From the NCBI GenBank assembly GCA_044225175.1, contig JBGAJA010000004.1, positions 81,631 through 145,630 on the forward strand: a stretch of DNA of 64,000 nucleotides. The letters are read 5' to 3'. The position numbers and the translations under genes were made by a program. Position 1 is the first letter of the stretch. Every line of letters begins with the position of its first letter. The notes below the pieces were generated by a model, which had not been told where the DNA came from, made no database searches, and saw nothing but the letters and a program-made list of their open reading frames with translations. Source of the stretch: Candidatus Omnitrophota bacterium (GTDB taxonomy: Bacteria > Omnitrophota > Gorgyraeia > Zapsychrales > Fredricksoniimonadaceae). Below, piece by piece: positions 27,197 to 47,356 of the stretch.

Positions 27197-28312
27197 TCAA
27201 TTTTGCGATACAAAATCCGGCAGCGGTATGGGGGTTATGGTGAGGATATATGGAACTAGGCCGGTTAAATGGGTTAATTCTGCAGGAAGTTGTACATCTC
27301 CTACCTGAGGCATTTGACCCTGTTCTTTGATCTCTGTTTTCAATAAATCTGGGTTTAGATCAATACCTCCCAAGTCTTTATTCTTGGAAACCTGCGCCTG
27401 ATCTGGCGTTGAGCTACCCACATTCAGCTCTAGGGCCGTAATGATTCTTTCTAATCTCTCTTTTCGCAATTGCAATTGTTTCAATGCCTTGTTATCTAGT
27501 TTGGCTTGCGACCCTGCCTCAGACATGTCTTGTTCTATGCGCTCGATGTTTTCTATTACCTCTAACCTCTGCCCTTCGTAAGCAATCAACTTCTCTAATC
27601 TTTCTTTCTCAACTTGGAGTTGATGGGGTTGCTTTTGTAATGCTTCATTTTCAATTGCGTTAACTTTTTGCACTGGCTTAAATATTGTCCAAAGCTTGCT
27701 CTTCTGTCCGCTCAAATATACTGTACGAATTCGACCATCGGCTTGTTCATATGCAGAAGAAATCCAATCATCATGTTCAAGCCTTTCAATAATGGTGTAG
27801 TTTCCCTCCGCTTGTGCTTCCCAAATATAGGCAATAGTATCGCTTACCGTTATTATTCGACCATCCGAAAGTTCTTTTGCTGATCCTACCCTTTCAGGAT
27901 GTTCTAATGGTTTGGTAGCCTCCACCCATTGGACACCTACCTTTTTCCAAATTCTGGCCGTTTGATCTCTGCCTGCTGTCAAAATTCTTCCATCTGATAA
28001 TGCTACTGCATATTTGATTAATTTGGTCGATTCTTGTTTGATGTCCGTAGGGGCATGATTTATCATGCCCTTTAATTGGGTTTGATGAATCAAACCCCTA
28101 CGGTTAGGGTTTTCATCTCCCGCATCCATCACAAAATCAAACTCAAAAGGCCGATTCGCATGCACCTTAAGGCCCTTCAACATAGGCACATTGCTGGCCA
28201 TCGCAACCTCGTAGGTTCGTAAGGGCAGGTTCCCCTGGGCCTGGGCTGGGATTGGGCCTAGACCGGTTATCAAAAAGCTCACCAATGTTAAAATTGAGAA
28301 TGGTTTTTTCAT
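27197..28312 (-). CDS. Modular secreted protein paralog P2 (371 aa): shared N-domain, short DGRI/WD-like repeats, coiled coil, shared C-terminal tail
   Basis: The first ~86 aa are identical to the 36300-36590 ORF. The C-terminal DLGGIDLNPD...PLPDFV tail is shared with P3 and P4. Its start overlaps the P3 stop (ATGA). Confidence 0.7.
   Translation of the reverse strand: MKKPFSILTLVSFLITGLGPIPAQAQGNLPLRTYEVAMASNVPMLKGLKVHANRPFEFDFVMDAGDENPNRRGLIHQTQLKGMINHAPTDIKQESTKLIKYAVALSDGRILTAGRDQTARIWKKVGVQWVEATKPLEHPERVGSAKELSDGRIITVSDTIAYIWEAQAEGNYTIIERLEHDDWISSAYEQADGRIRTVYLSGQKSKLWTIFKPVQKVNAIENEALQKQPHQLQVEKERLEKLIAYEGQRLEVIENIERIEQDMSEAGSQAKLDNKALKQLQLRKERLERIITALELNVGSSTPDQAQVSKNKDLGGIDLNPDLLKTEIKEQGQMPQVGDVQLPAELTHLTGLVPYILTITPIPLPDFVSQN
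28045..28103. repeat. In-frame 59-bp palindromic element CCGTAGGGG-(two hairpins)-CCCCTACGG in the P2 N-domain
   Basis: Inner palindromes catgatttatcatg and gggtttgatgaatcaaaccc. Encodes ...NRRGLIHQTQLKGMINH.... The homologous position in P1 is ~16 aa shorter and lacks it. Confidence 0.6.
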
Positions 28313-31300
28313 GATTTATGGTTTTGCACGAAATCAGGTAACGGCATTGGAGTAATCTTGATAATAAAAGGAACCAGACCAGTTAAATTGCTTAATCCTT
28401 CAGGAAGTTGTGCATCCCCTACCTGAGGCATTTGGCCCTCGGTTTTGATGTCTGTTTTTAATAAATCTGGATTAAGGTCGATACCTCCTAAGTCTCTTGA
28501 GGATTGAGCGGAATCTGTAGGATGTTTTTCAAGTTGTGCTTCAAGGGCCTTAATAAGTTTCTCTAATCTATTTTTTCGTAACTGTAATTGATCAATCTTA
28601 AATTGCTGTGGCAAATCTACTAGATCTTGTCCTAAAACCCCAACATCATCACCCAAAATGAGATAACGCGAATCTTTGCCCTGGTGATAGGCCAATATAT
28701 GTTTGATCATCTGACCGCTATAGGAATCTGTTAAATTCTTAATGAGATCATCACCTAAAGGCTTTTGTCCTTTCTTAAAAGCAAACGCACGCGTGCTGCC
28801 CTTATCATCATGTAAGCTCAAATAAAATGGCGGATCTGACTCCGCAAAATTCAAAACAGAATAAACAGGATAAACTGAATTGATTTTCTGTATTTCATTG
28901 GTCAAGGAATCATTATTTAGCTCAGATCCATCTGCTTTATAACTAAACACGCTACCCTTTCCAATACTCATGAATACTTGTTCTCCATTGTTTTCTCTGA
29001 TGATCACATCATAAATATGATTAGACTTATGTTTGTTGGAGATAGCCAGAGCTAATGGGACTTCATAAATTCTTCTACCGCCCTCCGTATAAACCGCCAC
29101 AAAACCCCTCTCTCCCGCAAATAAAAACCTTCTTTGTCCCTCAATTTGATACTCTAAGACTGTATAAATATCAAATGGCGTAGGAAGTTCTCTTATGGCT
29201 TTAGCCATAGGGTGGTCCACTTCTCTGCCGTCTTTCCCAAACACATAAACTTGTCTCATTTGACCTACAGCCATAAACGATTCTTCCCCTCTCGAACTAA
29301 AGAATGGAAGCACTTTGAATATGGTTAAATCTCCGAATTTACTTTTGATGGCTTGGACTAAAGGATCATTAGGGACTCTTGTTCCATCTTCCTCAAACGT
29401 AGACATCTTCTGACCGGGCGAATATCCCTTAGTTACAATGCGGACACGACCGTCTCTCTTATAGGAAAAAGAATAATGAATTCCATTTATTCCATGGAAA
29501 AATTTGATGGCTTTAGCTAACTTGGAAGCATTGTCTGTTGGAGGTAAAGCATGGATGGGTCTATAGCTTGGCTTGTGGTCAGCGACTAATCCGGCCACAT
29601 GCCATGATGTGACATGACCTCTTTCATCCACAACCTCTAAATGAGTTCCATCCGCAGATATAGATACAGAAATAAAATTATTCGCAGAATGCTTTGATCC
29701 TATCTCTGTTCTTTCTTCCCATACACCCTGATCATTCTTAGTCCATATCCAAATCTTACCCTGACTGCCCACTATGACAAAATAACTACCATCTGGTGAA
29801 ACAGCCACATCATTTCGTCCCCCTGGGGTTAAGCGAACATTCTGCTGAGTTCCTTTGCTATCCCAAATACTAACCTCACGATTACCCATAGCCACAAAAC
29901 TTCCATCAGGAAAAACATCCAATGCTTTATAGCCACTGTAGTAATAAGATTGATTCTTGCCCCATTCCCCATCCTTATTCTTCCAAACATTGATCGAATG
30001 CCTCTCAAGAGTTAAAAAAGATTGACCATCCGCAGAAATCACAAGATCTAATGTGCAATCCTCATGGCCTATCAAGGCTTCTTTGCTTGCTATAACAGAG
30101 GGCTCCCATTGATTACGTTCGTTCTTTTTCCATATTTGAATAAACTCATCTGAGGTAGGAGGAACACCATTATTGCCTGATTCAGGCCTGGTATGTAAAG
30201 TCAAAAAATAGTCCCCTTGAGGAGATATGACAATCTTTTGTAAAAGCCCCACCTCACCCCTTGGATCAAAAGAACGCCTGTTTCCCCATGCCCAACCTCT
30301 TTGACCATCGGCATTATAAATTGTAATGCTTCCGTTCGGATCACTTACATCTTGATTGACCATGAAGCTCCCATCTCGAGCAATGGCCTTTATTCTGGAA
30401 TCTACCTGGGATTTTTCTTGAGGCGAGATCTCATGAAGTGGCAATAACCTTAGAATTTGATTCTTTGCTTCCATTGATTTTAAAGCATCCTCGCGCTCTT
30501 GAGAAATACGGGCCAACTCATCTTCATGGGCAATAATTCTTTCAAGCCATTTTTTCCTTTTTTCTAATACAACAAGGCTGCTTTGCCCTACTCGAGGTCC
30601 TCCCACGTCCCAAATTCTCTCTCGTCCCTTGCCATCTACCGTTACAAAGTAAGTCCCATCAGGAGATATGGCAACGGCTGCTGCGACATCTTCAACCCCT
30701 GGATCTGCAACAGTCCCTAAAAATCTTCCTTCCCCCCATTGACCAGCAGCATTTTTTGTTGATATAAACACCTCTCCTTGAGATCCTACGATGACACAAT
30801 AATTGCCATCTGGAGAAATAGCCACATCCTGGAGGTCCATAAAACGATCTTTGACAATCTGGCCAGAGGATACCCATTCATCATTTGACCTTTTGTTTTC
30901 CCAGACGTGGATAAGACCAGACATCTTATCTGTGACCACAAAACTCTTTCCATCAGGAGCTATAGCGACAGATAGTGAATTGTTTAAAGCTGCAGATATC
31001 TGCTGCTTCCATTGAGGTTCACCTTTAGCATTATAAACTTGCACAGCACTGTTGTTATGGACGACCACAAAAAAACTGCTGTCAGGAGCAATGGCTACAT
31101 CCGTTATTTTATATGAATAAGAACCTACAGAAGTCTCTTGCTTCCACTCATTATTTTTCTGAGATTTTCTCCAAATTTGTACTTTCCCAGATTCAGTTGT
31201 TACAACAAAATAACTTCCATCTGGAGCGATTGCTACGTCAGTCAATTCCCAAGGAGAGTCGTTTAATAGTCTGCGACCTGGCACCCATTTATTCTGACTA

Positions 31301-34300
31301 TTTTTATTCCAAAGCGTAAGAATGCCTATTGCAGTTCCATCTCCAACATCCTTATAACTCGTGGTAAGAAAATACGTACCATCTGGAGATAAAGCAACGG
31401 CTGTTATGTCTTCACGATCACTTGTGTTAATGGGCTCTTCCTGTGTGGACCATGTCCCATCAGCTTCTTTACTGGAAATTCTGACCTTCCCAGCCTGCGT
31501 TACAGAGACATAAAACTTTCCATCAGAGGCCACAGCAACAGCCGCTGTAAAACCATCTCCCTTAGAGTTTAATTCGTGAAATTTGATCTGTTCCGGGACT
31601 AATAATTTCTTAGCTATTTCCCAAATCCTAGCGGCTCCATCATCACTTGATAACACAATATAACGGCCGTCGGGACTATAGGCGGCGGTAGACACCCCAT
31701 ATGGAAATCCTGTTAAAGGCTTTCCTATTTGCTGTCTTGTTTGCACATCCCAAAACCTAACAGATCCATCATCACCTGCTGTCACAATATAACGACTATC
31801 TGGACTAAATACTACGCTCACCACTTCCTTATCAAGTCCTTTTAAAGGCTCACCTATTGGCTGTCTTGTTTGGGCATCCCAAATTCTGACCGGGCCATCA
31901 AAACTTACTGTCACAATATAACGTCCATCAGGACTATAGACTGCTGAGCTGAACACTGAATCATCATGTTCTATTAAAGGCTCACCTATTTGCTGTCTTG
32001 TTTGCGCATCCCAAATCCTAACTGTGCCATCACGACTTGCTGTCATAATATAACGGCCGTCGGGACTATAGGTCGCGGTATAGACCCCATTTGAATGTCC
32101 TTTTAAAGGCTTTCCTATTTGCTGACCTGTTTGTGCATCCCAAATCCGAACAATGCTATCATGACTTGCTGTCACGATATAACGACCGTTTGGACTATAG
32201 GCCGCCGAAGTCAGATAATCCTCATGTCCTGTTAAAGTCTCTATTGGCTGTCTTGTTTGCGCATCCCAAATTGTAGCGGTCCTATCATCACTCGCAGTCA
32301 AAATATAACGACCATCTGGACTAAATACTGCGCTCATCACTAACCCAGAATATACTCTGAAAGGCTCACCTATTTGCTGGCCTGTTTGTGCATCCCAAAT
32401 CCGAACTGTCTTATGATCAGATACTGTCACGATATAACGACCATCGCGACTATAGGCTGCTGATCTCACAAAATCAGTATGTCCTGTTAAAGTCTTGATC
32501 ATCTTTCTTTGATCATCAGGCAAGAGCTCTAATAATCCTCTTTTGCCTTGATTGGCCATGATTTCGTTGATCTGAGCAATGACTTTCTCAAGCTCTTTCT
32601 TCCACTTACTTTCAGGCACAAATGCTGCTTTAACTTTAAGCTCATCTTGCCTTGCCTTTAATCTTTCAATCTCACTAGTAAAGAAATCAATCCCTGCCTG
32701 GAATGGATTATTCTCAACCCCTCCTAATTCTTCTAAATGAGACCTTTGTTCCTCAAGAAGTTTAATCACTCGTCCTATGTCTTCGACAGTATCCTTATGC
32801 CCCTGAACAATTCCTTCAATCGTACTCTTCACCTCTGCCAGTGGGTCGGCACTCATGGCTTGATCTGAGCTACCGGTCTTTGCAGTGTTTGGCTTAAATA
32901 TCTTTGTTGTTATGATCTTTCCTTTTAAATCGTCTGTTAAAAGTCGTCCATCAAGGAGACTTTCCTCTTTAGCAATCAATAGTTCTAATTCTTTTTTTCG
33001 AGCTTCTAATGTGCTTAATTCCTGTTGAAGTACATCTTGTCCATCCTTAGGAACATCGGTATCGGGTGTCTGTGGTTCCAATGGTTTAAAAATCTTCCGA
33101 ATTACGGTTGTAGGATGATCTTTAGTTGTAATGAACACACTCGTTCCATCAGGACTAAATCCAATCACAGCATTAACGGCGTCCCCAAGGGAAAAACTTT
33201 TAATTTCTTCTCCTGTTTCAATGTTCCAAATCTTGGCTGTCCCATCCTTGCTCGCCGTAGCGAGCATTCTTCCATCAGGACTAAAATTAACTGAGTCCAC
33301 AAAATAAGAGTGGCCGTTCCACACCCTTATTGTTTTTCTCTTTATAATGTCCCAAACTATGAGCGTACAGTCAGACCCCGTTGCTATTTGGTTTCCATCC
33401 GGACTAAACGCCATGGAATAGATATTGTTGGGCTGTTCTAATGTTACTTCCCTTCTTCCAGTGTCCACATCCCATATCCTTACCGCTTCTCCCGTAGACA
33501 TTTTAATGGTCGCAGCCACCTGTGTGCCATCTGGACTAAAAGCGACTTTTGAACTAAGAGATGTTTTATATCCCAATAATCTCTTCAGTTCTACCCCTGT
33601 ATTCACATCCCATATTCTGATTTTATCTAAAGTTGCTATAACAATCTTTGTACCATCAGAACTCAAGCTCATTGCTTTAAAATTTGTTATGTTCTCTAAT
33701 GTCCTGATTTTTGTTCCTTTATCAACATCCCATATAATCACTTGGGAATTATTCATCGTAGCTATCCTTGTTTCATCTAAACTAAAAACAGTTCCCCAAC
33801 TTATATAATCTCTTAGCGTGTGAAGTTCTTTTAGATTTGGAACATCCCATATTTTAATTATTCCACCTTTGCGTACTGTGACTGCTCTACTCCATTTTGG
33901 CCCTAAAACCATTGAGTCCGTAATGTATTTTTCATCTGGTAATAGCTCTATGGGTTTAATCTGGTCTTCTGGCAAAATTTCCATTTGTTCTTGGCTTGTT
34001 TGCTTTTCTTTAGATGAAGATTCTTGTCTTTCAATTGGTTTAAATATGTTCCAAATCTCAGATCCGAAAGCATCCACTATAAATATTTTACCTTCCGACA
34101 GTATTTGGGCTGATTTCAGTCCAACCACCTCAGCGGTAACCTCTACCTCCCATTTACGTCTGGATATTTTCTTCCATATCTTGACGGTACGATCCTCACT
34201 CGCTGTGAATATTCGTCCATCTTCCAACATATGAGCTGCAACAACGGTACCGTTATGCCCTAGACTATAGCGATCTTTTTCTTCTAAAGTAGCTTCCACT

Positions 34301-36093: not shown

Positions 36094-36300
36094 CCTCTTC
36101 CAGAATTCTTTCCTCTATCTTTTCTTCCGGATACAGCAAGGATGCCATGATCTGTTTTAAGATATAGTCCTGATCTAACAGCTTCATCCCCATCACTGTT
36201 TCCCAAAATCCTCTGAGATCATTCGGTCTTTTTCATAGGGACTTAGGTTCACCCATAGGTGGTCATTGGGTATGGCTAAGGTTGAGAGGAAGTATTTGAT
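36093..36300 (-). pseudogene. Frameshifted junction between the P3 N-domain ORF and the main ORF
   Basis: Aligned with the P4 segment 46840-47180, this stretch shows +1 (cc-t-c vs ccc), -1 (ttt vs tttt), -1 (ggg vs gggg, inside the CCGTAGGGG terminus) and -3 differences. All lie in or next to homopolymers. Confidence 0.5.
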
Positions 36301-36590
36301 TAGTTTGGTCGATTCTTGTTTGATGTCCGTAGGGTATGATTTATCATGCCCTTTAATTGGGTTTGATGAATCAAACCCCTACGGTTAGGGTTTTCATCCG
36401 CATCCATCACAAAATCAAACTCAAAAGGCCGATTCGCATGCACCTTAAGGCCCTTCAACATAGGCACATTGCTGGCCATCGCAACCTCGTAGGTTCGTAA
36501 GGGCAGGTTCCCCTGGGCCTGGGCTGGGATTGGGCCTAGACCGGTTATCAAAAAGCTCACCAATGTTAAAATTGAGAATGGTTTTTTCAT
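36300..36590 (-). CDS. N-terminal domain fragment of P3 (96-aa ORF with signal peptide)
   Basis: Identical at the nucleotide level to the 5' end of P2 (27197-28312). Its start overlaps the P4 stop (ATGA). Confidence 0.55.
   Translation of the reverse strand: MKKPFSILTLVSFLITGLGPIPAQAQGNLPLRTYEVAMASNVPMLKGLKVHANRPFEFDFVMDADENPNRRGLIHQTQLKGMINHTLRTSNKNRPN
36327..36384. repeat. In-frame palindromic element copy in P3 (left terminus CCGTAGGG, one G short)
   Basis: Same element as at 28045-28103 and 47086-47144. Confidence 0.6.
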
Positions 36591-39500
36591 GATTTATGGT
36601 TTTGCACGAAATCAGGAAGCGGCATGGGGGTGATATCTTTAATAATTGGAACCAAGCCTATGATTTCTTTGAATTCTAAAGGAATATTTGAATTTCCCAG
36701 ATCAGGTGTTTGACCCTGATTTTTAACATCTACTTTTAATACATCTGGATTAAGATCAATACCCCCTAAATCTGATTCTTTCAACATAGCTCGATCTGAA
36801 GGAGCGCTGGACTTGAACAGTTGGTATATTGCAGCCAATCCTACCGTTGTTCCAATGAATGACTTTCCATCTGGATGAAATGCTATGAAAACAAAATTAT
36901 AATCTGTCCCTGCATGAAATGTCATGATCTGGTTACCTGTGATCACGTCATATACCTTCATCCGACCATCCTCAGTGCTCGTAAGAATCTTGCTTCCATC
37001 GGTACTAAAGATGAGGGTTATATTAAATCGAGCACTCTCATCACTCTGAACGTTAATATTCTTGAGTACTTTTCCCGTACTAACATTCCAAACTTTGACT
37101 ATATGATCATCACTTGCAATGGCTATGCGTCTTCCATCTGGGCTAAAGGCGACCGCTAATACTTCTCTTTTGTTTCCTACATATGTCATTATTTTCACAC
37201 CTGTTGTGACATCCAACAGATCTATATTGCCATCATCGCTTGGAACAGCTACTTTGCTCGCATCGGGGCTAAAAGCAAAAGCTTCTAACGGAGCCCTCTC
37301 GACTGCAGATATTGATGTGCTAATTTTTTGTCTTGTTTTAGAATCCCATACGATAACGTTATCCCAACTTGCGGCAAGAGCCAGTCTTCCATCTGGACTA
37401 AAGGCAACACGCATTACTGGTTTTGGACTGTTTAATTTCTTAATTACCTTGCCCGTTTTTACACTCCAGATCCTGGCAGTATTATCCTGGCTTCCACTAA
37501 TGATCCTTTGTCCATCTGGGCTAAAAGCAACAGAAAATACCTGATAATTTTTCTCATGCCCTTCGAACACCCTCAATAATTTTCCTGTTCTTACACTCCA
37601 TATCCTCACTTTTCCATCCTCATGGGCAGTAGCTACTTGTTTTCCATTTGGACTAAACGCAGCAGACCGCACAAAACCTCTATAGTTTCCCAATTTCTTA
37701 GGGGCACCGATCTGGTCTTTAGGCAGAATTTCAAGCTGTTCTTTGGCATCTACCTTAACAGGTTTAAATTTATCATCTATCTTACGTCCAGAAACAACAG
37801 GCACTGATGCTGTTGCAAGGAGTTCTTTCCTGGTTTTTAATTTTCCAATCTCCTCATTAAGCAATGCAATCGCTTCACTAAACACATGCACATCACCCCC
37901 TGCAAGGGTTTCCAAATGACCTTTTTGTACCTCAAGAAGATCAATGATTCCCTGAACATCCTTAATTGTGTCTTGAGGCCTCTTAAGAATACCTTCAATG
38001 ATATCTTTAACATCCCTCGCATTATCTCTTAGTGCATTCATCGCAGAGTCTTTTAAATAGAAAGTTCTTACACCATACTCCTGAAGTCCATATAACATTT
38101 GTTCAAATGACTGTAGGCGGGTCATTTGATTGCCCGTTGTTTTATTAATCACCATCTCATCTAATCTGAGTTTTAAAATCCAGTCCGCCCCCTCTTCTAG
38201 AAACTTTGAAGGCCAACCTTTTTTCGCAATGATTGCTGTTCTTATGATGGCTCGCAAGTTGTCAATTCTTGCACGATTTTCTTGTGTGTGAGCTGGCGGC
38301 AAGGTTATATCGCAGCGTTTATCTAAAATGACACCTAATACTTGATAGGCATCTCTGGCCATATTGAATCGTTTTATTTTTTCTCCAATAGTCACAAGTG
38401 TTGGAAGAGTTAAGTTACTTCCCGCTGGCGCGTTATTTTGAATAGTTACATTTTGTTGAACCGTCATTTCATCAAATAATATTTCTAATCTTTGCTGCAA
38501 AGTTTCAATTTGACGATCGATGTTCCCCATGGTGTTTGTTTGCAAGAATCTAAGCACCCTGTCAATGTCTTCAAATCCTGTTTGTGGCTCACGAATGACC
38601 GGAAGATTCTGAACTAATACTCCCTCTCCTTTGAGAAAGTCCTCCAAAGCATTTTTAGTGGGGTCTTTTGAAAAGAGGCCTTGATCAATAAACACTTGCA
38701 CAATGTTGGAACGCCAGCGGATCAAATTTGCAGCATCTCCTTCTAATGTTAAATTCTCCAAAAGAAGGTCCAGAAGAATTTTCTGAGATATTATTCCCTT
38801 ACTTTGCCGATAATTGAACTGACGGACAATAGCTTTAACAAAAGATTTTAAATTACGAATACTAATTTCCTTATTACGCGGAAAGAATGTTGGATCTTTG
38901 ATTTGACGTCTAGAAATTTCCTGAGCAATGCCAATAATTCCCGAATATTCAATTTCTCCATCAGGATATTTCTTAGGCTTGCCACCAGCATCAAGCTTAG
39001 GCTCACCAATCAAGTGTGGATTAACAGCAAATTGCAGGGAATCCACTATAGATTTCCCGACAGCTGCTTCGTTGAGGTAATAAACCATTTCTTGAGGCGG
39101 CATATCCTCAAAATCAATGACCATATGACGTTCAATAAAGTCATCCGGAAATGATTTGATCCTCTCTCCGCTGCCAGGACGATTAATCGTATGAATAATA
39201 CCAGAACCAGGCTGCCCAAAAGTGACCTGAGACTCTTTGGTTGGATCATGAATCATGTTTCTTTCAGCATATTCATTGAGTAATGAAAGTACGGAAGGGC
39301 GTCCTTGATTGCTTTCATCCATATTTAAGATTTGCCCATGACCATGGCCATCGTCCATAATCGAAGGTAATATCCCAGGAAAAAAACGTGTACGGAAAGA
39401 CTTAAGCGCTCTTGAAAAAGTCAAATGATACCTACGGGTTTCTTCATTGATTTCCGCCTTTAGAATTCCTGGGGCATTCAACAATTTTTGGATGGCGAAT

Positions 39501-42500
39501 GTCATAGTACTTTTTCCTGTTCCAGGTTTTCCTACAAATATCGCGTGTTTACCCAAACCATGCCCTTGAAGATACACATACAATTTAAGAGAGTTCTTAG
39601 CGCTTTCAATCCACTCCTTGATTTCAGAGGGTAATCTACCTGATCGGATTTCTGCCTTTGGATGAAGAGGAACTCTGATGGGATCCCAGAATTCTGCTGA
39701 TGCTCCACTTGGAGTAATGATCAAATAATCACCATCCACTTTAAAAGAGGATTCTTTGAACTCCAAAGGCGGTTTATTTGGACTATCTATACGCCATGCC
39801 TTAAAAGCATGTAATGCACCTTGATAAGTATTATTACGGTCTTCTTCCGCTTTAAAATTATAATAATATTGAATCACACTTAAAGGCCGATACTCCCAGT
39901 CTTTCTCGAAATTGATAAAATGAGTGATGATATTTTTAATAACACGAGGAGATGGCGGCCGTTTCAGGTTCTGAGCAATTCCAGAGGCTGGGCCATTCTT
40001 AAAAAGATCCATAATTTGAGGGTCCTGCGCCATTTTCTGGACTAAATAGTTAGAGTCCAATAAATTCCAAGATTCCCGATTAGCAAAAATAACAGCCTGT
40101 TGTTGAGCACTATAACCTGCAAATGATAGTCTAAGTTCGGCTGCAATACGGACTAATTCAGTAATATCATTTTGCAATTTTTGCCTAAAATTTTCCCAAT
40201 CATCTTTATGAATTCCCTTCTGACGGGCCAAATTTAAAGCATATTCTAGCTGCCAGGCCACTTCATCTTCAGGCCAGTCCCAATAAAATTCCACATCTTT
40301 AAATCTGTCTTGCATGGGCGCATTTGCTTCAAAGCTAGTACCAGTAATACCCGAGCGGATACGATTGACGCTTGCTAATAGCCTGGCGCGCGGGTGATTA
40401 GGCAAAGTCTCAAAACGCGTAATTCCGTCTCGAACAATGGGCCATTTATGAGTTTTGCCTGTGATATGAGATTTGAGGGAATTTAATACGCTTTGACGAA
40501 TTTTATGGGCTTCACGAATGACAAACCACCCTCCTTTATGCATGACCTCATTGAGACCTGAGGGTATGACCCCTGAAGTGCCTGCTTCTTCTGCTCCAAC
40601 GGATTGAGGTCCACTTTCAAGATCTTCCACATCGAGATCTCCATCTCCCGACATCACATATACCTCTTCATTCAATAAATGAGCTGTAGCCATTAAAATT
40701 TCATCTTTTCCAAGACCTGTCTCACCGATTAAACGAACTGCAATTCCATCCCATGAATCACTAGCTGTTTCATTATTAAAACGCAATCGACTTTCGACCT
40801 CCCACTGAGAAGATTTCTTAAAGATAATGACTTCTCCGTCATTATGATTGTACGCAAATACTTTTTCACTGTTGATTTTATAGATATTCCATTGACCTTC
40901 TTGCAATTCAGAAATAGGCAATTCCTTAGCTATATCATCTTTAGGAATATCTATTGAAACGGAATCAAAAACTTTAATAGGTGTGTATCCTCCATGATTA
41001 TCATCTTTTTGCAAAAGCTCAATCTGACCATCTTCAATTTGTCTTAGTCCATAACGGTGGTCTGCTGAATAAGACATATCGATATGGTTGGAGTTATACA
41101 GGGCATCTAAAATTTTAATCATTTTATCCTCAGTAGAGGCCGTCATTGGAATCGTAGTCGTGGGGACATTTGAACCTCCAAGCCCTCTTTGCCAATAAAG
41201 AGCTTCTTCATTAGGACGTTTAAAGACTAAAAATTCATACCCATTTCTAGTTTGAGTAAAGAAATGTTTATAATCGCCCAAAGGTTTCATTTCTCCAAAC
41301 TGAACCTGTGGATCAGAGGTCATGGCCGCATCTACACTGTCCAGCCAGCTGACTCCAGGAGCAGGTGCTCTGATGGAATTAGCAAAAGAGTCCATGACTG
41401 CATTAGGGAGATCTCCAAACGAGGCCGGAGCAATCACACGATGAGGATATTCTTTATTCTGAAGCTGCGAGGCACGCACTTGATTCATATTTCCTAAAGG
41501 AATGATATACACATGAGCACCCTCATCCTCTGCTTGCTGAAGAGTAGTATGGACTTTCCCTTTTTGATCCTCATCCACATCTTCATCCGTCAAAGCAAAA
41601 AGGATGCGAATACTTTTCTCTCCACTGGAAACGGAATCCTGAGAAGATAATAAACGTTCAATATACTTAAAAAGATTGGATGCATAATGAGTACCTCCAC
41701 CTGCATTTAATTTCTTCCACACATCATAAAGTACACGTTCTTTACGAAAATTCTGCTTGCGAGATGTCTCATGGGAAATCATGGTTTCCCCTGGTGCATC
41801 CACAAAAAGACCAACTTCAAATTCAATAGGCGCATATCCTCTGGACTGACGAACTTCATTATGGTTTAAGATAGCGCTCATCATGACAAAATAAATAATC
41901 CTGGCCATTTGAATGGGAAAAATACCCCGTTCATTGTCAACTCCCATACTTCCGCTTCGATCCATCACAAATGACACTTTAACCGGAAGAGGTTCATTAG
42001 GTTTCCATTTGCCAAAAGCAGGTCCCCCTGAAATGGCTGCCACCACATTTGCTAATATCGCACCTTGCTCCAAATCTCTTTCAAAAGTAATATCAACACT
42101 AGGGAGGGTTAAGACTTCCAGAGCTTTAGTAAAACGTTGAATCAGCTTGCCAACTGTGATTGTTTTACCCTTATTTGTAATTTCAATTTCGAGCCATTTG
42201 TTATATTCTTTCCATTCATCCATGGTCAAACCTGTTCGGTTCTTGATCATCTCTTCTTCCGCACGAGCTGCTGCAAGAGGGTCGAAAGGTTTGACAGTAA
42301 TAGGTCTAACAGGAGGTGTGGTTGGTCTTTGACTATTCAAAAAATCATCCACATCTGGAATATTCACCTTATCTGGCATGGATAATTCTTGGCTGTCCTT
42401 TGTCGCAGGCTTGTGTTGTTGGGGTTGATCTTCACTAGCCGGTTGAGAATTTGATGATGAACTTTGGGATGGTTGATTTTGCGATTTCTTTGATGATTGT

Positions 42501-45500
42501 TCCAAAGATTGCTTCAAAGAATCAATCTTACTTTGCAGATCTGATAATTTATTGGAAGCGTCTTTTGTTTTAGATGATGTTTGATCAACTTGCTCTCGAA
42601 TTTCTCCCACTGTGCGTTCAATTTGGCGTACTTGTCCTTGGACTTGAGGGCCATCAGGCTTGGGTTCGCTTAATTTATCTGATAGTTGATCTGTGCCTTT
42701 TTTGAGGGCATTTGCTTTTTCTTGAAGATCATGGATTTGATTTAAAAGGTCTTGGATCTTGCCATCAAATTCTTTTGACGAATCAGAGGCTTCTTTGCCC
42801 TCTTCCGGAGAAGGAAGATTTTGACGCATGCCTTCGGTAGCATCTTTTTGATTAGACGAAGCACTAGAAGCTTCGCGGGCCTGATTCAAAAGATTCTGGG
42901 CTTTCGATTGGATATCTTTGGCTTTGCCTTTAAGATCATCAGCTGTTTTGCGTTGATCATCAAGCGGCTTACTCTCAATTCCAGAAGCATTGACATCCCC
43001 TACCTTGCCCTTCATCCCCTCTAATCCCTGGGTCATCTCTTCAATTTTCTTATTGAGATCACTCAGTTGACCGGCTAAATCTTTCATGGTTTTCTCAACA
43101 TCTTTAATATCATGAGAGCCGCCTTGCTTCTGCCCTTGACCTGGAATGTAGCGACCTTGAGATCCTCGGGAGCCTTGCGGCTTACCTGGCCCTTGGGATT
43201 GTCCTTGTTGACCTGAAGCTCCTGGCTGCCCCTGCTGCCCTGCCTGACCTTGTTTCCCCGATTGGCCCTGTTGACCCTGCTGTCCTTGTTGGCCTTGCTG
43301 GCCCTGTTGACCTTGCTCTCCTTCGCCCTCTTGATCTTGCGGTGTTGGCTGCCCCTGAGAACCGCTTTGGCCGAATTCTTCTTGGGCCTCATCCATTTGC
43401 TCTTGCACAGCTTTTCGAATAGCTTCTTTGGTCTTTTCATCCAAAGAATTCCAGAAATCTTCCAACTGTTGCTTTTGTTCTTCTGTCATTTGATCAAATT
43501 CACGACGCAATGCTTCCTTCTTTTCTTCTTTCATTTTACGTTGATAAGCGCGCCATCGTTCTTCAGTTTTCTTGGCTTTCTCAAAGAGTTCCAAATAAAC
43601 CGGCCAAATCTTTTCTCCAATGGCTTTAACAATTTGCGCATCTTGAATGTATTTAGGATGAAAAAGAAGTTTAAGCCAGCCATAATCTTTGGCATCATCC
43701 AAACTTCCCATTGTTCTAACAACAGCTGTTTCCAAGGCAGGATTGTTGACCCGGGGGTCTTTCATGCTTTGTTCTTGAGGATCATAATGAAACCGTCGAT
43801 ACATCAAAGAATCCAAATATTGCAGATGAAGGGGCAAAGAACTTAACAAGGCCTTGGCCACCAATTGATGGGCTTTTGTATCCCCTAAATCATATCGATC
43901 TCTTAACACCCTTCCCACCCAGAGGGAAGCCCCCTGCAAACTTTGATCTGCTTGACCTGATAAAATACTTTTAGAAGTAACGTCAATTCCAAGGCGTACA
44001 GATTTTGGAAACAATAGTGTGTCCCACAACGTCTGAGTGATGGAGTTTCCTTTAGACGAATCAGGAAGATTCTTCATAAGACCACGTAAACCAAATTTGA
44101 CTTGAGAGATAGCAATAAATGCTAATCCAAGTCCTCTCTCACGGGCCGCTTCGATCTGTCCTTCTAAATCATTTCTGGATGTACCATCATAGAGACGCGG
44201 ATAAATATCTGTGGGAACATAATGAAGCTCTCCCACATAATCACTTTTAGATTGATAACGCCACAGCCCTCTTGGTGTACCTTTAAGTTCAACTTGCTGA
44301 CCTGCCGATGTGCCGGCAAATTTGAGAATGTCATCTGTAATTTTAGCTATTCCATGACCTACTTTAGGATCTTCTGACAAGGCATAACGTTCATAAAGAA
44401 CTTGGAAAAAATCTTTGAGAAGCCGAAGCGGTTTGATGTCTGGGTCTTTGGCTTTCATCTCTGAAAAGACCCCGGCAATTAAAATACCCACCGCTCTTTG
44501 GGCTGCATAACTATTTAAGAGAAGGTCTGCTGACTGCCCTTGTTCTTCATAAACTGCCCGGGCTTCACTTAAAAGATATTCCACAGAGAAGTATCCAGCT
44601 TGACGATCAGAAGTCCCTGGATTGATCATAAATCCAGTTTCTCCCTGCTCGGCAATTTGGCGGCCTCGTTTAAATAAATCCACAGCTGCGGGCTCCTGTG
44701 TCATAGCTGCAAATTCGATTAATTTCTTTTCAAATAAACCTTCATCACCTTTGACAAAACGCTCTATTTCCAGAACACTAACTGCATGGGTAATGTCTTC
44801 CCATTTAAAGGGAATATGAATTTCACCTTGGTTAGCAAAATAATGAAAAAGTTCATGTTTTAAAGCCAATCGAATGAACCATTCAGTGGCTTTATCTTTA
44901 ACATAAACTTTCTTGGATAAAGGATCAAAAAGCCCTCCAGACATGCCAATGACACTGTTCATATTTACAAGAAGATCAGCCGCTGACTCACGCCATTGAT
45001 CAAATGGACCTATTTTAAAAAGAGGCTCTAAGAGGTCTCCAAAATAATAGGATTTCACATCTTCCCTTAATCGTTTTTTCCAAACTTCTTGAGCAGTGCC
45101 ATCAAAAAGCTCTTCTACTGTTTCATCAATGATTTGATCTACAATCCCTCGCGTTTCTTTAGATAGACCCTTGTTGCCAACTACAAGCATTTCTTCATAG
45201 AGCGCCATAAATTTACTTTCAAATTCATGAGGATTTCTAATCTCACCTAGAAAAAATAATCTATCAATCTTTCCTTGGGCATAGACTTGATGAGCCGCCT
45301 TCAATGCAGATTCAAATCCTTGTTCCGTGGTTTTTTGAGACAAAGGCCCAACTACATTAAGCATACTCTGATAAGCCACATGAAAAGCCGGTTCATCGCT
45401 ATTATCCAAAGCTATAACCATGTCTTGTTTCAATGTGAAATAATCTTTCATGACCTCCTGAAGGGAGGCTCGTTCGTAGTCTTTGGAGGGTGGACTAGAC

Positions 45501-47356
45501 ATCGCTTCATCAGTTAATCCATACTTTTTTCTTAAATTTTTTAAAAGAAAAGCTTGTCTTTCTACAATACTCCAAGGATCCTCTTCTGAGGCCTCAATAG
45601 ATTCCCAATATTCTTTATCCACATACCAAGCAACTTTCATCCCGGGATTGTTGTGCTGAATCCAAGTTAAATGTTCTTCAATCTCCTTCTTAAAACCAAA
45701 ATGAAACATACTGATGTTTTTATTTAAAATAATAATTATATTTTTATCATCAATAAGGGTCCTAAACAGATAACCATACTCCCTTAATCGAGCCTCAAGT
45801 AAGCTGATAAAATGAAATTCTATTTTCACATTAGACGTTCTATCTTGAGTGGGTGCGGTTGTGATCGCAACAGATGGTGTTTGTGTTGCTGAATTTGATG
45901 AAGTTAATGGAATAGAAGGAAGACTTTTCTTCTTCTCTTCTAAAACTTTGATGACCTCACCAAGCCTCTCAATGACCCATTGAAAATTATTGGAACTTTG
46001 TTCCTCCAACGCTTGAAAACTATCCTTAGATTGTTTTAACTCTTGAATTGCTTCTTCCACCTTCTCTTGAGAATCTAATGGCTTATCTAAAATGTTCTTG
46101 ATGGTTTGTTCTACATCTTGTCTGTCTTTCAAAGTGGGACTATGGGTCATGGCAGGATCAATGGATTTGAATTCACTTCGTACTGCAAATAAATGTGACT
46201 TCTCAAAGGATTGCATGGCTCGATCTTGAATCTCTTTAGGAACACTTGACCAGTCTTTGTACACCATAGCCTGGTCTAATGCTGCCTGTGGATTGAATCC
46301 TCCTGAGAAATATTTTCGTGCTACCATCTGACCTGTGATCTCGTCTTTTTCCTCCTTAATATAATTGAACACGCCCTTCTTATAGGTCTTAAGATAGTTT
46401 TGGAATATCTTCTCTTCTTCCTTAGGATCTTTCTTCTGTAACCCTTGGGTCTTGCCTTTGTTCACATAGGCTTTAGATAGAACACTCTTTTTTAGCTCTT
46501 TCTTGTACCAAGCTGCCAAGACCATGGAATTGACAATCTGGCGTAAGGGGGCAAAGTCTTTGGATTGGTTGACTGCTTTCTCTAACTCAGGAATCACGAT
46601 CTCACGGACAATTTGACTACATAAAAAGGTGTCAGACACCTTTTTATCCATCTGCCCGCTCAAAAAGGTGTCTGACACCTTTTTGTGGGCTAAATAGTCT
46701 TCTTCCATCATTACCTTCAATTTCACATCCAACACCCATACTGTGTTGTCTTTCATCAAAAGTGATGCCTGATCCGGCAATATCCATACCTTGTTAAACG
46801 TATTAATCGGCACATTGGTATTCCCATACTTCTCTTGTACCTTCCCATACACCCTCTTCCAGAATTCTTTCCCTATCTTTTCTTCCGGATACAGCAAGGA
46901 TGCCATGATCTGTTTTAAGATATAGTCCTGATCTAACAGCTTCATCCCCATCACTGTTTTCCCAAAATCCTCTGAGATCATTCGGTCTTTTTCATAGGGA
47001 GATAGGTTCACCCATAGGTGGTCATTGGGTATGGCTAAGGTTGAGAGGAAGTATTTGATTAGTTTGGTCGATTCTTGTTTGATGTCCGTAGGGGTATGAT
47101 TTATCATGCCCTTTAATTGGGTTTGATGAATCAAACCCCTACGGTTAGGGTTTTCATCTCCCGCATCCATCACAAAATCAAACTCAAAAGGCCGATTCGC
47201 ATGCACCTTAAGGCCCTTCAACATAGGCACATTGCCGGCCATCGCAACCTCGTAGGTTCGTAAGGGCAGGTTCCCCTGGGCATAAGTGGGCATGGGGCCT
47301 ATGATAGAGCTAACGATGAAGCAAACTAATATAGTTAAACTTAATGGGGTTTTCAT
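36587..47356 (-). CDS. Giant modular secreted protein paralog P4 (3589 aa): N-domain, helical region with a Gly-X-Y tract, VWA, two AAA+ (MoxR/AAA_5-like) modules, WD40 propeller, shared C-terminal tail
   Basis: Signal peptide. HELFH at ~nt 44850. 13 consecutive G-X-Y triplets (GEQGQQ...GQS) at ~43205-43330. VWA MIDAS motif (VSFVMDRSGSMG) at ~41950. Degenerate P-loop (LIGETGLGKDE) at ~40715 and Walker A (FVGKPGTGKST) at ~39525. WD40 repeats at 36850-37800. C-terminal ...ITPMPLPDFVQNHKS. Confidence 0.8.
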   Translation of the reverse strand: MKTPLSLTILVCFIVSSIIGPMPTYAQGNLPLRTYEVAMAGNVPMLKGLKVHANRPFEFDFVMDAGDENPNRRGLIHQTQLKGMINHTPTDIKQESTKLIKYFLSTLAIPNDHLWVNLSPYEKDRMISEDFGKTVMGMKLLDQDYILKQIMASLLYPEEKIGKEFWKRVYGKVQEKYGNTNVPINTFNKVWILPDQASLLMKDNTVWVLDVKLKVMMEEDYLAHKKVSDTFLSGQMDKKVSDTFLCSQIVREIVIPELEKAVNQSKDFAPLRQIVNSMVLAAWYKKELKKSVLSKAYVNKGKTQGLQKKDPKEEEKIFQNYLKTYKKGVFNYIKEEKDEITGQMVARKYFSGGFNPQAALDQAMVYKDWSSVPKEIQDRAMQSFEKSHLFAVRSEFKSIDPAMTHSPTLKDRQDVEQTIKNILDKPLDSQEKVEEAIQELKQSKDSFQALEEQSSNNFQWVIERLGEVIKVLEEKKKSLPSIPLTSSNSATQTPSVAITTAPTQDRTSNVKIEFHFISLLEARLREYGYLFRTLIDDKNIIIILNKNISMFHFGFKKEIEEHLTWIQHNNPGMKVAWYVDKEYWESIEASEEDPWSIVERQAFLLKNLRKKYGLTDEAMSSPPSKDYERASLQEVMKDYFTLKQDMVIALDNSDEPAFHVAYQSMLNVVGPLSQKTTEQGFESALKAAHQVYAQGKIDRLFFLGEIRNPHEFESKFMALYEEMLVVGNKGLSKETRGIVDQIIDETVEELFDGTAQEVWKKRLREDVKSYYFGDLLEPLFKIGPFDQWRESAADLLVNMNSVIGMSGGLFDPLSKKVYVKDKATEWFIRLALKHELFHYFANQGEIHIPFKWEDITHAVSVLEIERFVKGDEGLFEKKLIEFAAMTQEPAAVDLFKRGRQIAEQGETGFMINPGTSDRQAGYFSVEYLLSEARAVYEEQGQSADLLLNSYAAQRAVGILIAGVFSEMKAKDPDIKPLRLLKDFFQVLYERYALSEDPKVGHGIAKITDDILKFAGTSAGQQVELKGTPRGLWRYQSKSDYVGELHYVPTDIYPRLYDGTSRNDLEGQIEAARERGLGLAFIAISQVKFGLRGLMKNLPDSSKGNSITQTLWDTLLFPKSVRLGIDVTSKSILSGQADQSLQGASLWVGRVLRDRYDLGDTKAHQLVAKALLSSLPLHLQYLDSLMYRRFHYDPQEQSMKDPRVNNPALETAVVRTMGSLDDAKDYGWLKLLFHPKYIQDAQIVKAIGEKIWPVYLELFEKAKKTEERWRAYQRKMKEEKKEALRREFDQMTEEQKQQLEDFWNSLDEKTKEAIRKAVQEQMDEAQEEFGQSGSQGQPTPQDQEGEGEQGQQGQQGQQGQQGQQGQSGKQGQAGQQGQPGASGQQGQSQGPGKPQGSRGSQGRYIPGQGQKQGGSHDIKDVEKTMKDLAGQLSDLNKKIEEMTQGLEGMKGKVGDVNASGIESKPLDDQRKTADDLKGKAKDIQSKAQNLLNQAREASSASSNQKDATEGMRQNLPSPEEGKEASDSSKEFDGKIQDLLNQIHDLQEKANALKKGTDQLSDKLSEPKPDGPQVQGQVRQIERTVGEIREQVDQTSSKTKDASNKLSDLQSKIDSLKQSLEQSSKKSQNQPSQSSSSNSQPASEDQPQQHKPATKDSQELSMPDKVNIPDVDDFLNSQRPTTPPVRPITVKPFDPLAAARAEEEMIKNRTGLTMDEWKEYNKWLEIEITNKGKTITVGKLIQRFTKALEVLTLPSVDITFERDLEQGAILANVVAAISGGPAFGKWKPNEPLPVKVSFVMDRSGSMGVDNERGIFPIQMARIIYFVMMSAILNHNEVRQSRGYAPIEFEVGLFVDAPGETMISHETSRKQNFRKERVLYDVWKKLNAGGGTHYASNLFKYIERLLSSQDSVSSGEKSIRILFALTDEDVDEDQKGKVHTTLQQAEDEGAHVYIIPLGNMNQVRASQLQNKEYPHRVIAPASFGDLPNAVMDSFANSIRAPAPGVSWLDSVDAAMTSDPQVQFGEMKPLGDYKHFFTQTRNGYEFLVFKRPNEEALYWQRGLGGSNVPTTTIPMTASTEDKMIKILDALYNSNHIDMSYSADHRYGLRQIEDGQIELLQKDDNHGGYTPIKVFDSVSIDIPKDDIAKELPISELQEGQWNIYKINSEKVFAYNHNDGEVIIFKKSSQWEVESRLRFNNETASDSWDGIAVRLIGETGLGKDEILMATAHLLNEEVYVMSGDGDLDVEDLESGPQSVGAEEAGTSGVIPSGLNEVMHKGGWFVIREAHKIRQSVLNSLKSHITGKTHKWPIVRDGITRFETLPNHPRARLLASVNRIRSGITGTSFEANAPMQDRFKDVEFYWDWPEDEVAWQLEYALNLARQKGIHKDDWENFRQKLQNDITELVRIAAELRLSFAGYSAQQQAVIFANRESWNLLDSNYLVQKMAQDPQIMDLFKNGPASGIAQNLKRPPSPRVIKNIITHFINFEKDWEYRPLSVIQYYYNFKAEEDRNNTYQGALHAFKAWRIDSPNKPPLEFKESSFKVDGDYLIITPSGASAEFWDPIRVPLHPKAEIRSGRLPSEIKEWIESAKNSLKLYVYLQGHGLGKHAIFVGKPGTGKSTMTFAIQKLLNAPGILKAEINEETRRYHLTFSRALKSFRTRFFPGILPSIMDDGHGHGQILNMDESNQGRPSVLSLLNEYAERNMIHDPTKESQVTFGQPGSGIIHTINRPGSGERIKSFPDDFIERHMVIDFEDMPPQEMVYYLNEAAVGKSIVDSLQFAVNPHLIGEPKLDAGGKPKKYPDGEIEYSGIIGIAQEISRRQIKDPTFFPRNKEISIRNLKSFVKAIVRQFNYRQSKGIISQKILLDLLLENLTLEGDAANLIRWRSNIVQVFIDQGLFSKDPTKNALEDFLKGEGVLVQNLPVIREPQTGFEDIDRVLRFLQTNTMGNIDRQIETLQQRLEILFDEMTVQQNVTIQNNAPAGSNLTLPTLVTIGEKIKRFNMARDAYQVLGVILDKRCDITLPPAHTQENRARIDNLRAIIRTAIIAKKGWPSKFLEEGADWILKLRLDEMVINKTTGNQMTRLQSFEQMLYGLQEYGVRTFYLKDSAMNALRDNARDVKDIIEGILKRPQDTIKDVQGIIDLLEVQKGHLETLAGGDVHVFSEAIALLNEEIGKLKTRKELLATASVPVVSGRKIDDKFKPVKVDAKEQLEILPKDQIGAPKKLGNYRGFVRSAAFSPNGKQVATAHEDGKVRIWSVRTGKLLRVFEGHEKNYQVFSVAFSPDGQRIISGSQDNTARIWSVKTGKVIKKLNSPKPVMRVAFSPDGRLALAASWDNVIVWDSKTRQKISTSISAVERAPLEAFAFSPDASKVAVPSDDGNIDLLDVTTGVKIMTYVGNKREVLAVAFSPDGRRIAIASDDHIVKVWNVSTGKVLKNINVQSDESARFNITLIFSTDGSKILTSTEDGRMKVYDVITGNQIMTFHAGTDYNFVFIAFHPDGKSFIGTTVGLAAIYQLFKSSAPSDRAMLKESDLGGIDLNPDVLKVDVKNQGQTPDLGNSNIPLEFKEIIGLVPIIKDITPMPLPDFVQNHKS
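46623..46684. repeat. In-frame pair of AAAAAGGTGTC(A/T)GACACCTTTTT palindromes in P4
   Basis: Copies at 46623-46645 and 46662-46684. Encodes AHKKVSDTFLSGQMDKKVSDTFL. Confidence 0.7.
47086..47144. repeat. In-frame 59-bp CCGTAGGGG...CCCCTACGG palindromic element in the P4 N-domain
   Basis: Identical to the P2 copy apart from one base (catgattt vs tatgattt). Confidence 0.6.

Follow-up and report, generated by a model that had tools for sequence, protein, structure and literature searches.

Here, we analysed a 64,000-nt stretch of contig JBGAJA010000004.1 from a Candidatus Omnitrophota bacterium (assembly GCA_044225175.1, positions 81,631 to 145,630), in the following referred to as the window. 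It harbours three consecutive minus-strand genes, P4, P3 and P2, which encode modular proteins with a common N-terminal region, the head, and a common C-terminal tail. Part of a fourth paralog, P1, is located at the window edge, 25 kb from this array. Our comparisons suggest that the three genes are real members of a large and apparently undescribed protein family of the Omnitrophota, with one gene being intact and two being damaged. Omnitrophota are ultra-small, uncultured and probably host-dependent bacteria, in which large 'hypothetical' proteins with few recognisable parts are thought to mediate the contact with other cells.

The open reading frame (ORF) calls place P4, P3 and P2 consecutively, and at both junctions the stop and start codons (TGA/ATG) overlap by 4 nt in the same context, ...AAATCATGAAAAAACC, in line with an earlier annotation of the window from its letters alone (the sequence-only reading). 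The translational coupling claimed in that reading has these ATGA overlaps as its sole basis; the overlaps are real, but coupling to P3 as sequenced would yield just a 96-aa product. An AAAGGA resembling a Shine-Dalgarno (SD) sequence is located 5' of the P4 start codon. In blastp comparisons, the first 101 aa of P2 are 98% identical to P3 and 83% identical to P4, P3 and P4 share 77% identity across 482 aa, and the tails of P2, P3 and P4 are 50-59% identical over ~70 aa. With 41-46% identity to the P3 and P4 heads and a match to the head profile, the P1 head is that of a diverged paralog, as noted in the sequence-only reading. The proposed common ends are further supported by hidden Markov models (HMMs) of head and tail made from other genomes, which match all four genes at the expected ends. 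Repeats within the locus are well above chance (self-blastn E-values 1e-176 to 0). The array is flanked by a riboflavin (rib) operon on one side and by glyQS, PPDK and sigma-70 genes on the other, with glycyl-tRNA synthetase as the first gene downstream; the remaining genes of the window are housekeeping genes.

Beyond the window, the family shows a standard architecture, in which a Sec signal peptide is followed by an alpha/beta head of ~330 aa, one to several cargo modules with disordered linkers marked by a D-x-A-M motif, and a tail of ~60 aa. The head contains 39 invariant residues, including WVNLSPYE, DYxLKQ, TFNKVWI, LRQ and PRKYFSGG, while the tail follows the consensus GGIDLN...DPAM...G-f-vPVIinIqP at the extreme C-terminus, so that invariant GG pairs mark both the head end (PRKYFSGG) and the tail start (GGIDLN). 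A search with aa 1-430 of P4 returned at least 1000 matches with no more than ~50% identity, and every match with a phylum-level source name (a minority of the matches) was a protein from a metagenome-assembled genome (MAG) of the Omnitrophota. A pattern scan of one genome per species yielded at least 589 head loci. Our locus analyses cover the best 80 of these at least 589 loci, which originate from 44 assemblies with up to 7 loci per MAG and carry the labels Omnitrophota, 'uncultured Planctomycetales' and, in one case, plain 'bacterium'. When the head HMM (312 positions) and the tail HMM were run on all six frames of these loci, the tail was found in the same ORF for 58 of the 66 complete full-head ORFs of other MAGs, and five of the eight tail-less ones had it in a separate ORF further downstream. 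Family ORFs are 682-3072 aa long (median 1300), and open-ended ones exceed 3700 aa.

When 1.84 billion cluster representatives were searched exhaustively with the tail profile (HMMER), 5,796 of them matched at E<=1e-3, and 2,511 of these reached E<=1e-10; a word-indexed search with the tail profile gave short fragments only. In every match listed, the tail match stops a few to ~25 residues from the C-terminus, and the head was also present in 40 of the 57 listed tail-bearing proteins of at least 600 aa. A signal-peptide pattern (basic n-region plus uncharged hydrophobic stretch) precedes 87 of 94 heads with an available N-terminus, additionally with a small-x-small site (typically A-Q-A/Q) in 74 of these 87. 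By inspection, P1-P4 all have a Sec-type signal peptide directly ahead of the head, which agrees with their earlier designation as secreted proteins. A full head of ~312 positions is present in P4 and P1, degraded in P3 and missing in P2. P2, P3 and P4 match positions 6-70 of the tail HMM, with matches ending 3-5 residues before the stop codon; the C-terminus of P1 lies beyond the window.

Neither head nor tail matched Pfam or NCBIfam; for the tail, Pfam was searched with the P4 tail segment and NCBIfam with the whole of P2 and P0006 (E<=1). In the PDB, too, both ends were without a match at the sequence and the profile level. For a second family member, the head core was modelled with AlphaFold2 (AF2) at a predicted local distance difference test score (pLDDT) of ~90, again with no match of the head to a known structure. 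No description of the family was found in Pfam, NCBIfam or the open-access literature searched, so that it may be described elsewhere, and the string 'GGIDLN' is absent from the open-access papers and preprints searched. Judged from these comparisons, the family appears to be specific to Omnitrophota and very large, with many paralogs per genome. Modular exported proteins as such are already known; apparently new are two domains, head and tail, as putative conserved targeting ends.

Family heads are ~56% identical, regardless of whether they stem from the same locus or from different MAGs, which indicates that the family is old. As same-locus heads are no more alike than heads of different MAGs, general recent duplication within loci was rejected as an explanation for the family as a whole. 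Tandem same-strand arrays also occur in other MAGs (e.g. at loci L003, L015, L026, L042 and L063 (three genes)) with gaps of -8 to 265 bp, indicating that adjacency is typical of the family, while the ATGA overlap is local. Hence, the layout with shared head, shared tail and variable middle described in the sequence-only reading was borne out, but it does not mark a local diversifying array: it is the regular build of a family that spans the phylum and diverged long ago.

As sequenced, P4 is the sole gene of the array able to give a full-length family protein. Five D-x-A-M motifs split it into head, four cargo modules and tail (Table 1). The (GQQ)n tract in P4 is followed by ~500 aa of coiled coil and low complexity, to which coiled-coil Pfam families match too. 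Both AAA+ modules noted earlier exceed the Pfam cut-off for AAA_5 (aa ~2208-2297 and 2605-2729), and the WD40 propellers assigned to P3 and P4 are likewise matched by Pfam, whereas the proposed VWA domain, which has a DxSxS metal ion-dependent adhesion site (MIDAS), and the collagen-like tract were both seen but score below the cut-off. The AAA module (aa 2013-3103) has no homolog at E<=1e-5 among 5.8 billion sequences, nothing meaningful was found for aa 451-1300 in Pfam or NCBIfam, and the P4 cargo has no match to a PDB sequence or profile. In combining two AAA_5 domains with a coiled region rich in Q, E and D and a VWA-like, MIDAS-bearing domain, P4 is reminiscent of MoxR AAA+/VWA proteins and of midasin (AAA_5, acidic linker, MIDAS); it differs in the order of the domains (VWA before AAA), in the presence of only two AAA domains, in the sub-cut-off VWA score (17.2 bits) and in its position behind a signal peptide. 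An HExxH motif (KHELFH) was observed at ~44.7 kb (aa ~880) in the P4 region 620-1300, which is otherwise unannotated, but neither a metalloprotease family nor any sequence in the PDB lends it support.

Table 1 Coordinates of family genes, their parts and associated repeats in the window
Feature	Position	Strand	Description
P4	36587-47356	minus	3589-aa ORF; signal peptide, head, D-x-A-M-delimited modules, tail; intact
P3	28309-36590	minus	~2760 aa if repaired across frameshifts; helical linker modules, at least 5 propellers, tail
P3 main ORF	28309-36093	minus	2594 aa
P3 N-terminal fragment ORF	36300-36590	minus	96 aa
P2	27197-28312	minus	371 aa; signal peptide plus initial ~75 residues of the head, then three WD40-like blades, a coiled coil and the tail
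P1	1-1584	minus	N-terminal 528 aa of fourth paralog; continues beyond window edge
P4 signal peptide	47279-47356	minus	MKTPLSLTILVCFIVSSIIGPMPTYA/QG; Sec/signal peptidase I type by inspection; AF2 helix at residues 3-18
P4 head (~330 aa)	46291-47281	minus	Head HMM positions 1-312
P4 D-x-A-M boundary 1	46148-46159	minus	DPAM, aa 400-403, after head
P4 D-x-A-M boundary 2	45500-45511	minus	DEAM, aa 616
P4 (GQQ)n tract	43199-43321	minus	Collagen-like; Pfam Collagen 18.6 bits, below cut-off
P4 VWA-like domain	41402-41974	minus	MIDAS DRSGS; Pfam VWA E 0.006, 17.2 bits (cut-off 23.8), profile positions 3-170 of 174
P4 D-x-A-M boundary 3	41321-41332	minus	DAAM, aa 2009
P4 AAA_5 module 1	40466-40735	minus	Pfam 29.6 bits (cut-off 22); atypical Walker A GETGLGKD, read by eye
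P4 AAA_5 module 2	39170-39544	minus	Pfam 35.6 bits (cut-off 22); Walker A GKPGTGKST and Walker B NMDE intact, read by eye
P4 D-x-A-M boundary 4	38039-38050	minus	DSAM, aa 3103
P4 WD40 beta-propeller	36851-37696	minus	Matched by WD40 and further beta-propeller families of Pfam, best E 1e-48
P4 D-x-A-M boundary 5	36785-36796	minus	DRAM, aa 3521
P4 C-terminal tail	36590-36781	minus	DLGGIDLNP...GLVPIIKDITPMPLPDF; tail HMM match 36598-36781
Near-identical head tract	P3 35642-36511; P4 46401-47276	minus	DNA alignment, 876 nt
Junction unit 1	36293-36773	minus	P4 tail, ATGA, P3 signal peptide/head start
Junction unit 2	28011-28495	minus	P3 tail, ATGA, P2 head start
Palindrome pair, P1 head	824-846, 863-885	minus gene	In frame, KKVSDTFL
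Palindrome pair, P3 head	35864-35886, 35902-35924	minus gene	In frame, KKVSDTFL
Palindrome pair, P4 head	46623-46645, 46662-46684	minus gene	In frame, KKVSDTFL
Intergenic palindromes	1631-1653, 18501-18523		Terminator-like; 18501 between gene stop and tRNA-Arg

A Pfam census of the cargo regions of 54 other members revealed no dominant cargo family and mostly cytoplasmic-type domains. Among the 25 families listed of 52 found were Glu/Leu/Phe/Val dehydrogenase (GDH, E 7e-47), alanine dehydrogenase, phosphoglucose isomerase (PGI, E 4e-199), PPDK, phosphoglucomutase (PGM), GNAT, PP2C, NUDIX, protein kinases, response-regulator receivers, HATPase_c, AAA+, methyltransferases and HEAT repeats. A conserved gene neighbourhood was considered and rejected: the largest cluster among 462 neighbour ORFs was a TPR membrane protein at 8 loci, and nothing else was recurrent.

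We consider it fairly probable that the three tandem genes and P1 belong to an Omnitrophota-specific family of Sec-exported proteins, in which head and tail serve as common handles for interchangeable cargo. Export would be accomplished by Sec, while head and tail might mediate anchoring in the envelope or surface coat, passage through the outer membrane, or both. Cargo would be swapped by recombination at the conserved ends and the D-x-A-M linkers. But, why should an exported protein carry domains such as the second AAA_5 module of P4 with its Walker A/B motifs, kinases, GDH or PGI, all examples of cargo dependent on ATP or metabolites? Because many of these modules depend on ATP or on substrates from the cytoplasm, the cargo probably acts within, or in contact with, a partner or host cell, or else as a binding scaffold. 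This would fit to the host-dependent, possibly predatory lifestyle proposed for Omnitrophota (PMC10066038).

Several points weigh against this explanation. It is a paradox that ATP-dependent cargo should follow a Sec signal, unless this cargo reaches another cell. The putative role of head and tail in export or anchoring is read from sequence. No secretion, sortase-like or protease gene consistently adjoins the family loci (462 neighbour ORFs), and the neighbours of the array in the window are housekeeping genes. In addition, 17 of the 57 long tail-bearing proteins have no detectable head, of which some may be split gene calls, and the tails in the window depart from the family consensus in their middle part.

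The D-x-A-M motif raises the question of whether the proteins are processed. It was found 195 times in family ORFs compared to 14.8 times expected from shuffling (~13-fold enrichment), corresponding to 1.42 per 1000 aa; the remaining ORFs at these loci have a rate of 0.10 and the remaining window genes one of 0.16. The first copy lies at a median distance of 22 aa beyond the head end, another one is often located ahead of the tail and one lies within the tail consensus. In the AF2 model, the motif sits in low-pLDDT linkers. P3 has D-x-A-M at aa 399 and 1243 and P1 has N-x-A-M variants, while P2 lacks the motif (DQAQ instead). Internal translation starts were rejected as an explanation, as there is no SD-like nucleotide bias upstream, which points to a signal at the protein level. 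The proteins might thus be polyprotein precursors cut at D-x-A-M or at GG (PRKYFSGG, GGIDLN) into head, modules and tail, with head and tail being pro-domains. The location of the motif in disordered linkers exactly at module boundaries, five times in P4 alone, the invariant GG pairs and the protein-level nature of the signal are consistent with such cleavage, and one preprint proposes processing of Omnitrophota giant proteins by C39/S8 peptidases (10.1101/2023.11.21.568195). However, no protease gene is present in the window or recurrent near family loci, the tails of P2 and P3 are preceded by DxAQ rather than DxAM, one copy lies within the tail itself, and a short linear motif might equally be a docking site. 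On balance, we regard polyprotein processing as unlikely.

With similar doubt we view the proposal that the proteins are never delivered and form an envelope scaffold, in which propellers, HEAT repeats, coiled coils and collagen-like cargo would build a periplasmic or surface coat and enzyme-like domains would be dead bricks. The cargo of P3 and P2 indeed consists purely of repeats and propellers, P4 contains long coiled-coil and collagen-like tracts, Walker A of its first AAA_5 domain is degenerate, and an extracellular coat of giant proteins was proposed for Velamenicoccus (PMC10066038). Against this proposal, the second AAA_5 module of P4 retains Walker A/B, and the VWA-like domain retains its MIDAS. 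Enzyme cargo elsewhere is near full-length and scores very high (the PGI and GDH matches given above), which argues against decayed bricks.

The two remaining genes of the array point to its recent history. The P3 head is read in three frames upon three-frame translation, with all frameshifts confined to the head, and matches the head HMM in pieces only (positions 1-51 and 121-312). The length of ~2700 aa given in the sequence-only reading for an unbroken P3 is roughly right for the stitched protein (~2760 aa), but the head is frameshifted as sequenced. The remainder of P3 includes WD40 propellers (Pfam E 1e-127), a tail HMM match at 28320-28509 and an internal duplication of a helical linker module (32574-32848 and 35106-35374, 86% identity in self-blastn). 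Together with the D-x-A-M motif before its second copy, this duplication makes P3 look like two fused linker-plus-propeller units. The P2 head is a stub (HMM positions 1-63 of 312, at 28000-28240) leading directly into propeller blades. These three blades, previously noted as 'DGRI' repeats, are WD40-like and 31-37% identical to the first P3 propeller (blastp); P2 has no Pfam match and none in NCBIfam. With its tail matched by the HMM at 27202-27388, P2 appears to be an internally truncated derivative.

Recombination, for which the sequence-only reading had suggested a check, appears to have left two traces within the array. Junction units 1 and 2 are 88.5% identical over 487 nt (self-blastn), and the P4 signal peptide differs from that of P3 and P2. 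The duplicated unit is the junction, i.e. tail, ATGA, signal peptide and head start, rather than a whole gene. In addition, P3 and P4 share a near-identical head tract, whose 876 nt contain no more than 3 substitutions. Six indels were found besides, every one of them in P3: five of 1 nt (at 36334, 36201, 36114, 35935 and 35906), of which four lie in homopolymer runs of 3-5 nt, and a deletion of 3 nt at 36398. Past this tract, identity drops to ~80% and then vanishes, and no further such indels occur in the ~18 kb of P3/P4 coding sequence outside of it. Given that family heads are otherwise only ~56% identical, the identity of the P3 and P4 heads must be recent. A comparable case is P1 (head HMM positions 3-312, at 423-1440), which shares a 99.6% identical block of 240 aa with the database protein P0001, including both KKVSDTFL inserts, while the proteins are otherwise different. 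P0001, an NCBI protein from a contig of 819,945 bp, has a signal peptide and cargo unlike those of P1, and may be either a mosaic paralog from the same or a sister genome or a product of gene conversion. Both the near-identity of the P3/P4 heads and the P1/P0001 block are suggestive of recent gene-conversion-like events. The P3 and P4 heads would hence have been homogenised very recently over ~876 nt by gene conversion or duplication, with P3 being frameshifted in this region.

The indels in P3 may reflect either pseudogenisation after gene conversion or a repeat-associated assembly error, and the 6:3 ratio of indels to substitutions, which resembles consensus error, leaves their reality in question. 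Could the shared ends, or at least the identical tract and the P3 frameshifts, be artefacts of mis-assembly or unpolished repeats altogether? Five 1-nt indels compared to 3 substitutions, all in one copy and four in homopolymers, are more like consensus error than natural decay, and ORFs with split head and tail occur at five other MAG loci. However, the genes are clearly distinct (different signal peptide of P4, tails of 50-59% identity, unrelated cargo), the same architecture and tandem arrays are found in dozens of independent assemblies, and in P4 the repeat lies in an uninterrupted ORF. We regard such an artefact as quite improbable. No independent assembly of the locus was found for comparison among metagenome contigs: the ATGA junction had 0 exact matches, and none of 120 contigs bearing the palindrome described below is related to the window.

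Two observations touch on such breaks elsewhere. At loci L003, L016, L024, L072 and L077, head and tail are located in separate consecutive same-strand ORFs, as in P3; split family genes are thus recurrent, which may stem from genuine decay or from misassembly at repeats. Moreover, the tail-bearing database proteins P0303, P0244 and P0225 start mid-head, directly in front of the variable loop, with their first residues at ...KLKVMLEQDYLS or slightly N-terminal of it. These starts coincide with the site of the P3 frame break and the palindromes, and may be gene-calling or assembly breaks at the repeat.

The palindrome in question is a perfect 23-nt sequence, AAAAAGGTGTC[A/T]GACACCTTTTT, found by pattern search at 8 sites in the window compared to 0 expected. 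In P1, P3 and P4 it occurs as an in-frame pair in a variable, low-pLDDT loop of the head. Such a pair folds as an RNA hairpin of 24 bp (-41.5 kcal/mol, z -8.7). No copy of the palindrome was found in 1.09 Mb of sequence from further Omnitrophota loci, yet the exact 23-mer is present in at least 120 unrelated metagenome contigs with a GC content of 0.40-0.72, often close after a stop codon and often paired. It recalls repetitive extragenic palindromic (REP) elements and, with regard to in-frame insertion, Rickettsia palindromic elements. A tRNA-Arg (CCT) gene (18417-18494, minus strand) lies directly downstream of the palindrome that follows the stop codon of a TPR gene. An Rfam gathering scan of the whole window gave no match, tRNA-Arg (CCT) included.

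Among known systems, cargo proteins of the type IX secretion system (T9SS) of Bacteroidota are the closest functional analogy, as they combine a Sec signal peptide and diverse cargo with a small conserved C-terminal domain in many paralogs per genome. The tail described here is shorter (~60 aa) and matches neither Por_Secre_tail nor any other Pfam/NCBIfam family at E<=1, and T9SS proteins are without an extra conserved N-terminal head. T9SS is not known in Omnitrophota. In contrast to LapA-like RTX (repeats-in-toxin) adhesins of type I secretion systems, the proteins have a Sec-type signal peptide, and no RTX/HemolysinCabind family is among the Pfam matches listed. In the tandem lipoprotein (lpl) paralog cluster of S. 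aureus (PMC2568036), the evolving or duplicated unit crosses the boundary between two ORFs, from the 3' end of the first into the 5' end of its neighbour; junction units 1 and 2 resemble it, while the protein families are unrelated.

Giant proteins of Omnitrophota ('Archaeovorins', Dockerin-type) are defined by length, transmembrane helices and nearby loci for type II secretion (T2SS) or type IV pili (T4P) (10.1101/2023.11.21.568195; 10.64898/2026.06.07.730766; PMC10066038), with thresholds of >20 kb per ORF (PMC10066038) or >=10 kaa (10.64898/2026.06.07.730766). As described there, they have much in common with our family: the phylum, an N-terminal signal peptide, long multi-domain chains of which few domains are annotated and in which metabolic-enzyme and kinase-type domains are mixed with AAA_5 and HEAT, and a function that has been proposed to lie at the cell surface or the interface with the host. 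They differ in length, with 10-147 kaa compared to 0.7-3.8 kaa in our family, and P4 (10.8 kb, 3589 aa) and P3 (~8.3 kb) stay below the threshold. The flanking T2SS/T4P-like locus with downstream pilZ typical of giants is not among the window neighbours (rib operon, glyQS, PPDK, sigma-70). Term searches of the giant-gene papers found no conserved head of ~330 aa, GGIDLN tail or D-x-A-M.

Polymorphic toxins (CDI, Rhs, MafB) with a conserved trafficking end, exchangeable toxic tips, cognate immunity genes and recombination at conserved borders, which the earlier suggestion of a diversifying effector system brings to mind, would fit the tandem genes, their conserved ends and variable payload and the recombination at the junction unit, but are largely refuted and very improbable here, as the payload is internal with both ends conserved, Pfam gave no toxin domain for P2-P4 and none among the 25 listed families of the cargo census (52 in total), no small immunity-like genes lie between or after P2-P4 (ORFs of 60-200 aa inside the genes are all antisense or out-of-frame), and the paralogs are old and not turning over fast.

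Returning to the handle function of head and tail, a more far-reaching version is conceivable, which we put forward tentatively and as less probable than the handle function itself. Head and tail might constitute an unrecognised Omnitrophota-wide export and delivery platform, by which thousands of proteins would carry cytoplasmic-type cargo out of the cell, possibly into host or prey cells. D-x-A-M and GG would then be processing or recombination joints, and fusion of tandem cassettes by loss of tail-ATGA-head junctions could build giant genes, a route for which the appearance of P3 as two fused units can be cited. Being common to thousands of proteins, head and tail offer a way to list the exported repertoire of any Omnitrophota genome, and two new domain models would annotate thousands of unannotated proteins. 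They also open a route to localisation experiments in cultured Velamenicoccus (the proteome of V. archaeovorus has been studied before, PMC10066038), to a search for machinery recognising the tail and to the question of processing at D-x-A-M/GG. The window itself provides evolutionary snapshots (duplication of a junction unit, a recent tract of gene conversion, and copies that are frameshifted or truncated) of how family genes appear to be duplicated, homogenised, fused and lost.

Two further regions of the window deserve mention. Positions 59250-60842 contain two short ORFs (159 and 169 aa) with ~600 nt of apparently non-coding sequence in between. The 169-aa ORF, which matches EF-Tu domain 2 weakly (E 7e-5, below cut-off), possibly represents part of a translational GTPase. 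EF-Tu/ribosomal cargo has been reported from hypervariable regions of Omnitrophota genomes in a 2026 preprint. On the other side of the array, three ORFs of 956 aa (10239-13109, plus strand), 581 aa (13139-14884, minus strand) and 368 aa (16930-18036, minus strand) have no Pfam match at E<=1e-4. They stand among glycosyltransferase, radical-SAM/SPASM and PMT_2-like genes, and the region 10239-18036 may represent an envelope-glycan locus. Within the 368-aa ORF, a tandem repeat was found at 17162-17547, with copies of ~82% identity offset by 72-240 nt (blastn).

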